From Candidatus Woesearchaeota archaeon B3_Woes (GTDB lineage Archaea > Nanobdellota > Nanobdellia > Woesearchaeales > B3-WOES), in contig NJBG01000001.1 of assembly GCA_005222965.1 (NCBI GenBank), positions 332,323 through 396,322 of the forward strand: 64,000 bases of DNA, in the 5' to 3' direction. Under the pieces are notes generated by a model. It saw only the letters and a list, made by a program, of their open reading frames with translations. It was not told where the DNA came from and made no database searches. Numbering within the stretch: position 1 is the first letter of the stretch; every line of letters starts with the position of its first letter. The position numbers and the translations under genes are program-made. Shown here piece after piece: positions 45,637-49,051 of this stretch.

Positions 45637-47181
45637 TTAGAAAGGTGAAAAAGGGAAAAATTTCTTCTTCTTAATAAAAAAATAAGAAATAAAACTAATA
45701 ATTATAATCAAAGAGATTATAGATATTATTATTAATTCTTTTATTGATTTTCCTTCTTCTTTTGTGATTAAAGGAGTTGTCTCTTCCATATCTTCATCAA
45801 AAGAAACTTCTGGAAGGGTTTCTTCTACAATTTCCTTTTTTGCTTCTTCTTTTTTAGGTAAAGTAATTGTTTGTAGTGCTTGTTTTTTTGGTATTTTCTT
45901 AACTATCATATCTACCTTACCACTCATTATAGAAACTAATTCAATATAAAGCAATTCGTCCTCTCCTACATCTATTGTTTGTGGTTTTCCAATAATTAAT
46001 GTTAAATAGATTGGAGATGATTCAATTACCAGATCAATTTTTGTTCTGTCTGGATAAACTTTTTTAATAGTTAGAGAATGGGGGTTTCTCCCTAATTTAA
46101 ATTCAAGTTTGCTGTTTCTTTCTAATTTAGTTATTTTATCCCCTATGCTTGTTAAAGATACTGTTCTAGTAAAATCTTTTTTAATTCCATTTCCTCCTCC
46201 TCCATTTGAAGATGGTGTTGATGGTGTAGTAACTTTAATTGTTATAGAACTGCTATTCCCTTCATTGCCAGATCCATCTGTACAATTAACATTTACTGTA
46301 TGAGTTCCATCAGGAACAGTACTTGCTGTAATTGTAGTATCTGTAGCATTAGCTGTTGAAGTGTTGCTTCCATAACTTGTTCCACTAAAGTATAAACTAC
46401 AATTTACAGTAGCAAATAAGGCATCAGTGTAGTTAAATGTTATTGAAGGTGTATTATCTGTTGTATTAAAAGAAGAGTTAACTAAAGTTACTATTGGAGC
46501 AGTATTATCAATAGTGATACTAACTGATTCAGAATTATTAATATTTCCAACTGTGTCATTTGCCCAAACAGTTATAGTGTGTGTTGTCTCTGCTAGTGTT
46601 GTTAAGTCAAGAGTTATATTCCAAAAATCTCCTGATTGTGTAGCAGTTCCTGTTGTAAATGGATCAGTTCCATTTGAAATATTGAAAAAAACAGTATCAA
46701 CAGTTAAAGTTGTATCATTTACTGTCGCATTTAAGACAATAGATGATGTTATACTTGCACTATAATTAGCACCAGTTGAAGGTGCATTTATAGTAACAAC
46801 ATTTGGTTGTGTATTATCAACAGTCACTCCTGTTACACTTATATTGCCAACAATCGTACCACTGGAATTTGTAGCATTAACGGTTAAATTATAAATTCCA
46901 TCATTTAAAAGGGTTGTTGTAGGAAAAGAAGTGTTTTCAAAAGTGGTTTGGCCACCAGTGGTATTATAAATAGTTGTATTTAGAACATAATTTCCATTAG
47001 AATCAATCCACTTAAAAGTTACATTAACTGCTGCTGCATCTGTAGTTGCATTTAAGAGAATATTCCCAGAAACATTCTGTCCAGTAATTGGGGAAATAAC
47101 AGCAACAGAAGCCAAAGCATAAACAAAGTAAGCAAAAAGAAATATTATTATAGTAAATAATGTAAAATATCTGAATTTAAT
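45637..47181 (-). CDS. Secreted Ig-like surface glycoprotein with a C-terminal TM anchor; probable ATT start
   Basis: Frame extends 22 codons upstream of TTG 47115, giving signal peptide (M)KFRYFTLFTIIIFLFAYFVYALA; GGAGGTG 7 nt before ATT. Confidence 0.75.
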   Translation of the reverse strand: MKFRYFTLFTIIIFLFAYFVYALASVAVISPITGQNVSGNILLNATTDAAAVNVTFKWIDSNGNYVLNTTIYNTTGGQTTFENTSFPTTTLLNDGIYNLTVNATNSSGTIVGNISVTGVTVDNTQPNVVTINAPSTGANYSASITSSIVLNATVNDTTLTVDTVFFNISNGTDPFTTGTATQSGDFWNITLDLTTLAETTHTITVWANDTVGNINNSESVSITIDNTAPIVTLVNSSFNTTDNTPSITFNYTDALFATVNCSLYFSGTSYGSNTSTANATDTTITASTVPDGTHTVNVNCTDGSGNEGNSSSITIKVTTPSTPSSNGGGGNGIKKDFTRTVSLTSIGDKITKLERNSKLEFKLGRNPHSLTIKKVYPDRTKIDLVIESSPIYLTLIIGKPQTIDVGEDELLYIELVSIMSGKVDMIVKKIPKKQALQTITLPKKEEAKKEIVEETLPEVSFDEDMEETTPLITKEEGKSIKELIIISIISLIIIISFISYFFIKKKKFFPFSPF

Positions 47182-47199: not shown

Positions 47200-47370
47200 A
47201 AATTCATTAATATCTTCTTATATATAAATGTTTTTTTTTGAATAAAAAAAGAATTTTTTGTATCAAATGCGTCTCACAAAAGTTCCATAGGAAATCAAGG
47301 GGTGTCCTCAATCTCCACAAGAAATGATGGGGTGTCTCATACTTGTAATGTCTCAAGACTGTCTCAGAAA
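47200..47370 (+). other. Candidate replication origin: AT-rich tract, two ORB-like boxes and GTCTCA repeats
   Basis: GTTCCATAGGAAATCAAGGGGT (47282-303) and TCTCCACAAGAAATGATGGGGT (47312-333) fit the TCCA-N3-GAAA-N-GGGG ORB pattern. Confidence 0.6.
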
Positions 47371-47408
47371 CAAAACATTTATAAGGAACCAATTTATTTA
47401 AATTATTC

Positions 47409-47786
47409 ATGGGGGAAGTTGATAAATTAAAAAAACAAATTAAAGAACTATCTGAAAGAATAGTTTCTCTTGAATCTAATATTCAAAAGAACCAAAAAGA
47501 TATAATAAAAGAAGCATTGACAGAGTTTACAAATCAAAAAAAGAAAGACAATCTAAAATCTGAATTCTTAAGAAAATTTAACCAAAACAAAAAAACACTA
47601 ATTAAACAAAAGATTATTGAAATAATAAAAATAAAACCAACTTCTCTAGCAGATCTTAAATATCATATTGTTAATCAATTAAATTATTGTTCAAAAGCAT
47701 CTTTTTATAGATATATCGCAGAAATGAGGGAAGATATAGAAATAAAAAATAATATAGCTTATCTTAATAAGAAGGTTCTTGTATAA
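47409..47786 (+). CDS. Coiled-coil plus C-terminal HTH-like protein
   Basis: N-terminal heptads; 'SLADLKYHIVNQLNYCSKASFYRYIAEM' resembles an HTH recognition helix. Confidence 0.65.
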   Translation: MGEVDKLKKQIKELSERIVSLESNIQKNQKDIIKEALTEFTNQKKKDNLKSEFLRKFNQNKKTLIKQKIIEIIKIKPTSLADLKYHIVNQLNYCSKASFYRYIAEMREDIEIKNNIAYLNKKVLV

Positions 47787-48127
47787 TGGACGTTTATATA
47801 AAAAACAAAACAATAGTTACAAACGCCAAAATCATAAAATCTCCTTTAAAACAAGCAATTGGCTTAATGTTTTCTAAACAAAAGAACATTATTTTTGAGT
47901 TTAAAAAAGAAAAAAAAGAGTTTATTCACATGTTCTTTGTTTTTTATCCTATTGATTTAGTATTTCTCAATAAAAATAAAAAAGTTGTTGAATTGAAACA
48001 AAACTTTAAGCCATTTAAAACATATAAATCAAAGAATAAAGCAAAATATATTCTCGAACTTAAAAAGAATACCATAAAAAACAACAAAATAAAAGCGAAT
48101 GATAATATTTCTTTCAAAAAACAATAG
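47786..48127 (+). CDS. DUF192-family protein
   Basis: GLMF, IHMFFVFYPIDLVFL, YILEL. Confidence 0.88.
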   Translation: MDVYIKNKTIVTNAKIIKSPLKQAIGLMFSKQKNIIFEFKKEKKEFIHMFFVFYPIDLVFLNKNKKVVELKQNFKPFKTYKSKNKAKYILELKKNTIKNNKIKANDNISFKKQ

Positions 48128-48161: not shown

Positions 48162-48302
48162 GGGGATGTAGTATAAAGGAAATTTTTCCGTACAACCTGG
48201 CTAGCATAGCTGGCTCCAGTCTTTGTGGAGCGATGAGGCAATACGCCGATGATTTACAAAGGGCTTTACCAGCAGATCTGAGTTCGAATCTCAGCATCCC
48301 CA
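48162..48302 (+). tRNA. tRNA-Trp(CCA) with two introns (48177-48195 at 15/16; 48220-48267 at 37/38)
   Basis: Acceptor GGGGATG/CATCCCC; T-arm CTGAG-TTCGAAT-CTCAG; anticodon stem GCTGG/CCAGC; CCA at 48216-18. Confidence 0.9.
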
Positions 48303-48313
48303 CTTTTTATTTA

Positions 48314-49051
48314 TTAAACTAATAATTTTTCTGGGAGGTTGCTGATTATATCTTCATCAGATAAAATTGAAATTTTTAATTCATTAATTTGTTTTTTTAA
48401 ACTATTTTTCCTTTTAGGGAAACTTTCTTTCGGACATATCAATAAACCATCATTTATTTTTAATATTTTCATATAATTTAATAGTTGTTTTAATTCAAAC
48501 ATTGTTATATTATTTTTTCCCCTAAAGTCTTTTATTTCAACAATGTACTTTTTATTATTGTAAATAAATAAACAATCTATAATACTATTTTCAATTCTTA
48601 TTTTTGGTTTGACATCTCCGAATTTCTTTAATAAGTTAATTACTCTTTTTTCATACTCAATACATCTTTTTACAATAAAAGGATTTCTGACCCCTGAAGT
48701 TATGTCTTTCTCATGATATTTTATTCCAGCTTCTTTATAAGCTTTTAAGATACTACCAAACGCCCTTATTACGTTAACTTTAGTTTTATTTTGAATTTCG
48801 CTTATGTTAGACGATGGATTTAGTTTAATGAAACCAATAACATCTTCTTTTTGTTCTTCTAAGGTTCTTTTAATCAAGTTTTTAGAAAAAATTATATTAG
48901 CATCTTTATATGCTTCTTTCATATTTTTATAATATCTCTCCACTTTCAACTTAGTTGCCCTTTTAATTTCACGATAAGTACAACTTGGATTATTTTGAAT
49001 GTATCTTTTGATTACTTCTCTTTTTTGTTTAATATCATTTTTAATTTTCAT
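48314..49051 (-). CDS. Protein with two N-terminal helical repeats and a PD-(D/E)XK nuclease-like domain
   Basis: Repeat 'V..(Y/F)I..NPS....EI...TK..V.R......AYK.A.I'; YE....L, IDCL, IVEIK, QL..Y. Confidence 0.7.
   Translation of the reverse strand: MKIKNDIKQKREVIKRYIQNNPSCTYREIKRATKLKVERYYKNMKEAYKDANIIFSKNLIKRTLEEQKEDVIGFIKLNPSSNISEIQNKTKVNVIRAFGSILKAYKEAGIKYHEKDITSGVRNPFIVKRCIEYEKRVINLLKKFGDVKPKIRIENSIIDCLFIYNNKKYIVEIKDFRGKNNITMFELKQLLNYMKILKINDGLLICPKESFPKRKNSLKKQINELKISILSDEDIISNLPEKLLV

Follow-up and report, generated by a model that had tools for sequence, protein, structure and literature searches.

A 64,000-nucleotide stretch of the genome of Candidatus Woesearchaeota archaeon B3_Woes (contig 1, positions 332,323 to 396,322; this whole stretch is called the window below) carries a conserved three-part module, in which origin recognition boxes (ORBs) of the Orc1/Cdc6 type lie inside an array of GTCTCA repeats, here termed iterons, next to a small gene encoding a winged-helix protein. 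The same arrangement occurs throughout the order, and a DUF192 gene usually follows. The original prediction saw here a candidate replication origin without an adjacent cdc6 gene. The module is not the main origin of this chromosome, and all sequence criteria for an origin point to the spacer upstream of the single orc1/cdc6 gene, 117 kb away. The module could instead be an Orc1-binding control locus outside oriC, assembled together with the adjacent winged-helix protein, a reading to which we give equal weight for and against. The source genome (G000) comprises 1,021,708 bp in four contigs, with 30% G+C, and is 96% complete; the module lies at 379.6 kb on contig 1. Relatives are designated by G numbers and individual loci by L numbers.

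The AT-rich tract, the two boxes, the repeats and the 125-codon open reading frame on which the original prediction was built are all present. ORB1, GTTCCATAGGAAATCAAGGGGT (47282-47303, plus strand, core 47284-47303), and ORB2, TCTCCACAAGAAATGATGGGGT (47312-47333, plus strand, core 47314-47333), are consensus Orc1/Cdc6 boxes with a G-string, located on the same strand 30 bp apart and showing no mismatch to TCCA-N3-GAAA plus G-string. One GTCTCA iteron (47271-47276, plus strand) ends 5 nt before the GT that opens ORB1, and this GTCTCA-N5-GT-TCCA arrangement recurs in relatives. An iteron-like variant, GTCCTCA (47304-47310, plus strand), abuts the G-string of ORB1, forming a GGGGT-GTCCTC junction also found in loci L024, L042, and L061. 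Three further GTCTCA iterons, at 47334, 47350, and 47361 (47334-47366, plus strand), complete the array; the first abuts the G-string of ORB2, the second and third are 11 bp apart, and the last ends 12 nt before a TATA-like box, TTTATAAG (47378-47385, plus strand). This box is centered about 27 nt before the ATG of the winged-helix gene (47409-47786, plus strand), a distance that suggests, from sequence only, a leaderless or near-leaderless transcript; similar A/T boxes are found at the same place in relatives.

Both boxes stand out in the genome. When up to two mismatches are allowed, the ORB pattern occurs in the window at these two places only, where 0.13 occurrences are expected, and in a shuffle test 2 of 100 shuffles gave two or more. 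A looser pattern, TCCA-N3-GAAA-N3-7-GGGG, matches these two sites alone on both strands of the entire genome, and they are its only strict ORBs; the strict pattern by which ORBs are scored below misses degenerate boxes. A weight-matrix scan, proposed with the original prediction as a check, was carried out with a matrix for which 73 ORBs from relatives were used, G000 being left out, and ranked the two boxes first in the whole genome (ORB2 at 44.1 bits and ORB1 at 43.6), followed by two boxes beside cdc6 (23.6 and 21.3 bits) and then by a site at 11.7 bits. The fixed positions of the matrix are circular because strict matches were used for training, but the flanks and the ranking are not. By these scores the module ORBs are closer to the consensus than the ORBs at the cdc6 origin of the same genome. 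The assignment of the boxes to the Orc1/Cdc6 type was thus borne out by the matrix and by the presence of the same motif next to cdc6 in G000 and its relatives.

A scan of 41 genomes of the order, G000 included, detected the strict ORB in 33, with one to three copies each, and the reversed pattern, used as control, in none (0/41). Comparison of coordinates showed that 19 of the 40 relatives have a strict ORB no more than about 1 kb away from the start of cdc6, and seven of these (G010, G013, G022, G023, G024, G029, and G036) have an inverted pair of strict ORBs at cdc6, 100-800 bp apart, as in classical origins. A further strict ORB was observed some 6-17 kb from cdc6 in G033, G017, G026, G027, G011, G019, G032, G030, and G040, as well as in G086, G164, and G148; these may represent a third recurrent class of ORB sites, of which the matrix scan found no member in G000.

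The iterons are likewise concentrated at the module. Eight copies of GTCTCA are present in the 64-kb window, four of them inside 96 bp at the module, and among the 133 sites of the 1-Mb contig the module is the only place with two or more copies within 60 bp. A genome-wide role for the hexamer was considered and rejected, since its strand bias of 96:37 ranks merely 237th among 1715 hexamer pairs. Genome-wide depletion was also rejected: the 133 observed copies compare with 124 expected under a fourth-order Markov model, the low-order expectations having been misleading.

The distribution of the module was established with a profile of the 125-aa protein, made from an alignment, that was searched against 201 genomes of the order and gave matches in 110 at E <= 1e-5. 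This tally includes three unpublished genomes (G121, G132, and G183), all with matches of the weaker class and used for no other claim. The scores are bimodal. Forty-nine places in 48 genomes score at least 66 bits and mostly fall in short frames of 113-243 aa, with two in frames of 271 and 300 aa, while the remaining matches score lower and fall mostly in frames of 180-420 aa. The boundary of about 66 bits between orthologues and paralogues is our own choice, and the lower scorers were treated as paralogues. All 49 higher-scoring loci, each with 1.5 kb on either side, formed the orthologue set; 20 paralogue loci, taken from the next rows of the table without the unpublished G132 and with the paralogue of G000 itself added, served as control, and ten further loci from a phylum-wide sample of 301 genomes formed a second orthologue set. 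The genomes are related, so that counts of loci overstate their independence.

A strict ORB was found in 36 of the 49 orthologue loci and in none of the 20 paralogue loci, whereas at least three GTCTCA copies within 200 bp were found in 39/49 and 4/20, respectively. The ten further orthologue loci gave a strict ORB in eight and such an iteron cluster in all ten. In the 301-genome sample, 52 genomes matched at E <= 1e-18, all labelled as belonging to the same order. In the 36 ORB-bearing loci the distance between the box and the matched segment of the gene is roughly 50-430 bp, and the box lies upstream in the same orientation in 22, upstream and inverted in seven, downstream in the same orientation in five, and downstream and inverted in two. 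An ORB that may lie on either side of the gene and in either orientation indicates that the site travels with the gene and is not bound to one promoter layout. The check suggested with the original prediction, whether homologues always follow ORB plus GTCTCA arrays, shows linkage in most loci, with some loci lacking these elements and some having the ORB downstream. In L078, iterons are kept and ORBs are absent. Of 36 orthologous loci scanned for neighboring genes, 22 contain a linked DUF192 gene, and the other neighbors vary widely.

The iterons and the ORBs are joined in a regular manner. Among 142 neighboring same-strand iteron pairs (no more than 60 bp apart, in the 49 loci), the spacing is exactly 11 bp in 69, 22 bp in 12, and 32-33 bp in eight. 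GTC begins within 0-2 nt after the GGGG in 34 of 53 module ORBs, as against 0 of 13 ORBs beside cdc6, and the full GTCTCA follows the G-string in 13 of those 34. At the other end of the box the junction GTCTCA-N5-TCCA is frequent, N5 often being AAAGT, which places the TCCA core 11 nt from the start of the preceding iteron. Several relatives also have an inverted pair, GTCTCA..TGAGAC, just upstream of the A/T box that precedes the gene.

The protein encoded at 47409-47786 consists of an N-terminal coiled coil, formed as a long helical hairpin, followed by a winged helix, with the recognition-helix motif CSKASFYRY, and belongs to no curated family. Its AlphaFold model (predicted local distance difference test score 78.6) contains two long helices (residues 3-43 and 47-75), two shorter ones (80-90 and 96-108), and two strands (110-113 and 116-119); the modelled C-terminal domain has the three-helix bundle and beta-hairpin wing that define winged-helix proteins. 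This domain is strongly conserved in the alignment, with C94, S95, A97, F99, Y100, R101, and Y102 invariant. Searches of Pfam and NCBIfam gave no family above cut-off, the best scores being 18.1 bits against cut-offs of at least 25 and 14.1 against 100, respectively, and the orthologues reached sub-threshold Pfam scores on FUR, HTH_7, and HTH_36 only. A structure search of the PDB with Foldseek returned nothing at E <= 0.001; its best rows were generic winged-helix domains, such as those of cullin WHB, PadR, MarR, MCM WH, and Rpa2 WH. Close relatives are unnamed or annotated as "hypothetical protein" and come from metagenome-assembled genomes of Nanoarchaeota. When 1.84 billion cluster representatives were searched with a profile, 636 clusters matched at E <= 1e-3, and 346 matched at E <= 1e-10.

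That this protein reads the iterons is indicated best by the fact that recognition helix and repeat vary together. In three loci from three families (L053, L066, and L078) the dominant iteron is GTCCCA, and in all three (3/3) the helix is of the CSKS type (CSKSSFYRY, CSKSTFYRY, or CSKSSFYRL). GTCCCA is never the dominant iteron in loci with a CSKA or CSRA helix, and those of them with an iteron cluster carry GTCTCA or a close variant. L053 and L031 belong to one genus, yet they differ in both helix and iteron. The suggestion in the original prediction that GTCTCA is a second, iteron-like repeat tied to the adjacent protein thus gains support from conservation, from the 11-bp phasing, and from this co-variation. 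Prediction of a complex between Orc1 and the winged-helix protein scored 0.00 in both runs, made without controls. The paralogue locus of G000 (L101, contig 1, 853,455-856,850) contains two adjacent genes (open reading frames 1162-1917 and 1972-2550) for proteins of 251 and 192 aa, each with a coiled coil and a winged helix, the first with the helix CSKSTFYRL; neither an ORB nor an iteron cluster was found at this locus.

The chromosomal origin is located elsewhere. A lack of Orc1/Cdc6 had been named as a finding that would count against the origin proposal; one orc1/cdc6 gene is present, with a single Cdc6_C match in the genome (contig 1, 495,314-495,583), 117 kb from the module. The gene (495.3-496.5 kb, minus strand) encodes a 403-aa protein of the ORC1 type, and its 533-bp upstream spacer contains CTCCAATAGAAGTAAAGGGGT on the minus and TTCCACACGCAACAAAGGGGT on the plus strand. 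These two ORBs, at 496,551 (minus) and 496,861 (plus), are inverted and each differs by one mismatch from the strict core; with their TCCA ends they look onto an AT-rich segment of about 300 bp, in which the best 80-bp window reaches 92.5% AT and a stretch of at least 90% AT extends over 84 bp. In work on haloarchaea, a site is accepted as an origin only if it has inverted ORBs around an AT-rich element and adjoins an orc/cdc6 gene (PMC3528665).

Nucleotide skew leads to the same place. The raw cumulative GC skew on the 1-Mb contig was rejected as an indicator, being monotone and dominated by gene orientation, and it was therefore replaced by the G/C skew at four-fold degenerate sites, with gene-strand and chromosome-strand effects separated, followed by binary segmentation. 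The dominant change point (gain 169) falls between the gene midpoints 495,879 and 497,405, that is, in the cdc6 spacer, where the mean corrected skew is +0.046 to the left and -0.264 to the right. The remaining change points have low gains of 19.1, 11.2, 5.2, 3.6, and 3.5. No significant break occurs at the module; the nearest, at about 392 kb, lies 12 kb away with a gain of 5.2, and its step from -0.032 to +0.046 has a polarity opposite to that of the origin. The check by genome skew suggested with the original prediction therefore singles out the cdc6 spacer and turns against the module. As to read coverage, three DNA sequencing runs were listed, each containing a small share (0.05-0.06) of the sampled words, and no RNA run was. 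One feature of the corrected skew is an unexplained offset: it barely changes sign around the chromosome, with values of about -0.29 at 497-975 kb and of -0.08 to +0.04 at 0-497 kb, where a mirror image would be expected. Throughout contig 1, many A/C-rich hexamers also outnumber their minus-strand copies on the plus strand by a factor of 1.5-2.3.

The module is separated from cdc6 in other genomes as well. In the nine genomes that have both on one contig the distance between the two is 37, 101, 117, 129, 156, 168, 200, 280, and 401 kb; a fixed distance was thus rejected, and the two are never adjacent. ORBs are also kept beside cdc6 in several genomes that have the module (G000, G001, G005, G008, G014, and G035), and with at most one mismatch in G086, G098, G148, G164, and G176. 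The claim of an origin without cdc6 could thus not be upheld, a canonical origin being present at cdc6 and neither a skew break nor an unwinding element at the module.

A secondary or dormant origin, served by the winged-helix protein as a specific factor in the manner of WhiP, or built on the plan of iteron plasmids, appears rather unlikely to us, although several features would suit it. The module ORBs are of consensus quality and surpass the ORBs at cdc6 in strength; the adjacent gene encodes a dedicated DNA-binding protein that co-evolves with the repeats; direct iterons, and in relatives inverted iteron pairs, lie beside the promoter; and in G000 a 66-bp tract of 88% AT adjoins the TCCA ends of the ORBs, which at cdc6 are turned toward the unwinding element. 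A precedent is the non-cdc6 origin oriC3 of Sulfolobus, located beside a winged-helix gene, as described in the available portion of PMC3607249. The base composition of the spacers does not favor this explanation. The AT tract of G000 (47200-47265; 87.9% AT, compared with 70% for the genome) is modest, its longest stretch of at least 90% AT being 49 bp, and is too short and weak to count as an unwinding element; it would most simply hold the TATA box and the 5' leader of the gene that diverges on the minus strand. The module spacer of G000 as a whole measures 218 bp, with 71% AT and a best 80-bp window of 0.84 AT. In the relatives, whose module spacers could be compared in 31 of the 36 ORB-bearing loci (five loci were dropped, among them that of G000, given separately above), the median length is 296 bp, the median best 80-bp AT is 0.76, and the median stretch of at least 90% AT is 0 bp, 19 of the 31 having none. 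Spacers beside cdc6 (n=7) have medians of 516 bp, 0.95, and 94 bp, respectively. The module spacers are not enriched in AT with respect to the surrounding loci (0.66 versus 0.65). Besides, the module ORBs are direct or single and never form an inverted pair around an AT-rich element, the skew has no significant break at 379.6 kb and its weak change near 392 kb has the reverse polarity, and the protein has one winged helix and matches no Rep family in the family searches; nor does the CDT1 family appear among its Pfam matches, even at E <= 1.

Comparison with described systems sets the module apart from each of them. It shares with Orc1/Cdc6 origins the motif TCCA-N3-GAAA plus G-string, as at the cdc6 origin of G000 itself, but its ORBs are direct, its spacers lack an unwinding element, it is distant from cdc6 and from any skew break, and it has an added iteron array that is absent from the ORBs beside cdc6 (0/13). 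With Sulfolobus oriC3/whiP it has in common an initiator-related site away from orc1/cdc6, beside a lineage-specific winged-helix gene whose product binds repeats; in Sulfolobus, Orc1 proteins and WhiP bind the same origins in vitro (PMC3607249). WhiP, however, is a tandem winged-helix protein related to Cdt1, while in the 125-aa protein a coiled coil precedes a single winged helix, and oriC3 is a proven Orc1-independent origin, while origin activity is not indicated at the module. In Thermococcales, a second ORB cluster inside dp1 is conserved and is bound by Cdc6/Orc1 in vivo and in vitro, as stated in the part of PMC1904270 that is accessible. It resembles the module in having conserved ORBs outside the oriC spacer; it differs in lying within the same 5-kb region as oriC/cdc6, compared with 37-401 kb for the module, and in having neither a second repeat nor a dedicated protein gene.

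Bacteria offer a functional parallel. datA, DARS, and the DnaA-box clusters of Bacillus are groups of high-affinity initiator boxes, located away from the origin, that regulate neighboring genes or the initiator itself, and at datA the accessory DNA-binding protein is IHF. The initiator is DnaA rather than Orc1/Cdc6, so that the likeness may be taken as an analogy of function only. Iteron plasmid origins and the centromeres ParR/parC and TubR/tubC also have phased direct repeats, with inverted copies, at the promoter of the binding protein, and in these systems the specificities of repeat and protein co-evolve. The module differs from them in being chromosomal, linked to housekeeping genes and rare in viral contigs, in lacking a Rep or motor gene, and in joining its repeats to host-initiator boxes without an AT-rich element.

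For an Orc1-binding control locus, the following course of events can be proposed. The winged-helix protein would dimerize or oligomerize through its N-terminal helices and occupy the iterons in a cooperative manner, along a single face of the double helix, and the iterons beside the TATA box would make the array its own operator, a role suggested by the proximity of the last iterons to that box. The single Orc1/Cdc6 would bind the module ORBs, and because iterons abut the G-string of the ORBs, the two proteins are proposed to sit side by side. Expression of the operon of the winged-helix and DUF192 genes might in this way be coupled to Orc1, or Orc1 might be held or modulated at the site, as DnaA is by bacterial DnaA-box clusters and datA. 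The side-by-side assembly and either outcome, regulatory or titrating, are what we would infer from the arrangement of the sites. In a bolder version, the lineage-specific winged-helix protein would build its phased array around high-affinity ORBs in order to capture Orc1/Cdc6 at a distance from oriC, to time its action or to inactivate it, as an archaeal counterpart of datA and the DnaA-box clusters; or the array might license a second origin under certain conditions, as with WhiP/oriC3. We lean toward doubting this version.

Several points weigh against such a control locus. Both the presence of Orc1 at the boxes and that of the winged-helix protein at GTCTCA are inferred. In G000 the ORBs lie 76-125 bp upstream of the putative start and not over the core promoter, and in 7 of 36 loci they lie downstream of the gene, a placement for which simple promoter control by Orc1 is an insufficient account. 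Thirteen of the 49 orthologue loci lack a strict ORB, and two, L049 (G165, contig 322) and L045 (G057), have neither ORB nor iterons, so that the ORB is not obligatory for the gene; both of these loci, from one genus, nevertheless contain the pair of winged-helix and DUF192 genes. The literature searched gave no archaeal precedent for a locus that titrates an initiator. Finally, strong ORBs together with a dedicated DNA-binding protein are also what a second replicon would look like.

A centromere-like site for partition or chromosome organization, resembling ParR/parC, TubR/tubC, or AspA, seems improbable. It would account for 11-bp phased iterons flanking the promoter of the gene of their own binding protein and for a site that is unique in the chromosome, and in L049 a gene for a ParA/MinD-type ATPase (AAA_31, 7.7e-47) is located directly upstream of the winged-helix and DUF192 genes, in the same orientation. 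However, neither G000 nor 35 of the 36 loci scanned have a gene for a nucleoside triphosphatase partner, the sole locus with ParA is one without ORB and iterons, and the presence of ORBs in the array would be left unexplained.

A polar fork pause or termination site made by Orc1 and the winged-helix array is very improbable. In its favor, the ORB, read 5'-TCCA..GGGG-3', points to cdc6 along the shorter path in seven of the nine genomes with both on one contig, and the sole windows of positive gene-strand-corrected skew fall between the module and cdc6. The polarity was rejected as a signal, as 7/9 is not significant (two-sided binomial probability about 0.18, our own estimate) and the genomes are related; moreover, the skew change point near the module is weak and 12 kb away from it, and cdc6 may be as close as 37 kb or as far as 401 kb. 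That the boxes are not bound by Orc1 at all, but belong to a composite operator of the winged-helix protein and resemble ORBs by convergence, would fit their fusion to iteron sequence (GGGGT-GTC in 34/53) and the family members that keep iterons without ORBs (L078), but is highly unlikely given that the 20-nt core is the motif adjoining cdc6 across the order, with a reversed control of 0/41 genomes, and that paralogue loci never carry the box (0/20).

An origin of the module in mobile elements was also rejected. Among 2.9 million viral contigs there was one match to the composite motif and there were two to the protein, a rarity which indicates that the module is not a typical viral or plasmid feature. 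Viral contig L118 (IMG/VR) has at 1501-1526 a consensus ORB followed by GTCTCA, near a mini-ORB-like sequence, TTCCAGTGGAG, in a G-rich non-coding stretch that may be a viral origin using the Orc1 of the host. Viral contig L119 encodes a 152-aa member of the winged-helix family with the helix CSKASFYRY; the short upstream stretch examined there contained no ORB or iteron cluster.

The module is flanked by two genes of other families. Downstream, the DUF192 (COG1430) gene (47786-48127, plus strand; 7.6e-17) starts within the stop of the winged-helix gene, and the two probably form one operon because of this overlap. On the other side lies the divergent gene (45637-47176, minus strand), whose product has Ig-like domains (Big_13, 3.1e-12) and is predicted to be secreted or anchored. 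Its listed open reading frame starts with TTG at 47115, and the frame remains open upstream through a stretch resembling a signal peptide. On the minus strand between 47113 and 47202, no ATG, GTG, or TTG was found before the signal-peptide-like N-terminus ..KIKFRYFTLFTIIIFLFAYFVYALA.., and translation probably begins at a non-canonical ATT, which follows a GGAGGTG at a distance of about 8 nt.

Beyond the DUF192 gene, a tRNA-like gene of about 142 nt was observed at 48162-48303 (plus strand), with the 5' acceptor GGGGATG, the T arm CTGAGTTCGAATCTCAG, the 3' acceptor CATCCCC, and a TATA-like sequence, TTTATAAA, about 25 nt upstream. The roughly 104 nt that separate its 5' part from the T arm suggest one or more large introns or insertions. 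ARAGORN reported no tRNA in the whole window and Rfam nothing at gathering scores; the gene shows solely as a 15-bit match to the transfer-messenger RNA (tmRNA) clan. Beside it, at 48314-49051 (minus strand), is the gene of a 245-aa protein with repeated helix-turn-helix-like N-terminal segments and a C-terminal region resembling PD-(D/E)XK or NERD domains below threshold (PDDEXK_3, 21.8 bits against a cut-off of 22).

The type of box is known; the combination with iterons, the protein family, and the context outside an origin are new. No description of an ORB-iteron-winged-helix module was found in the literature on archaeal ORBs, DPANN origins, iterons, and DUF192. A preprint on complete genomes of Nanobdellota rotates these to ORC1, and the words "ORB" and "skew" do not occur in its main text, the part of it that was visible without the supplements.

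How archaea control Orc1/Cdc6 at sites other than the origin has, to our knowledge, hardly been explored. One known case is autoregulation at oriC; the others are the ORB cluster inside dp1 in Thermococcales and Orc1-2 proteins that are not initiators. In the module, a consensus site for the initiator has been conserved in many families of an uncultivated DPANN order, and the locus does not pass as an origin by sequence. The site is physically interleaved with repeats that presumably serve as operators for a new DNA-binding protein co-evolving with them. In these genomes, the presence of an ORB is thus insufficient for calling an origin. How a minimal archaeal genome with one initiator regulates or re-uses Orc1 becomes a question that can be addressed in vitro, for which the two small proteins and a DNA of about 120 bp suffice.

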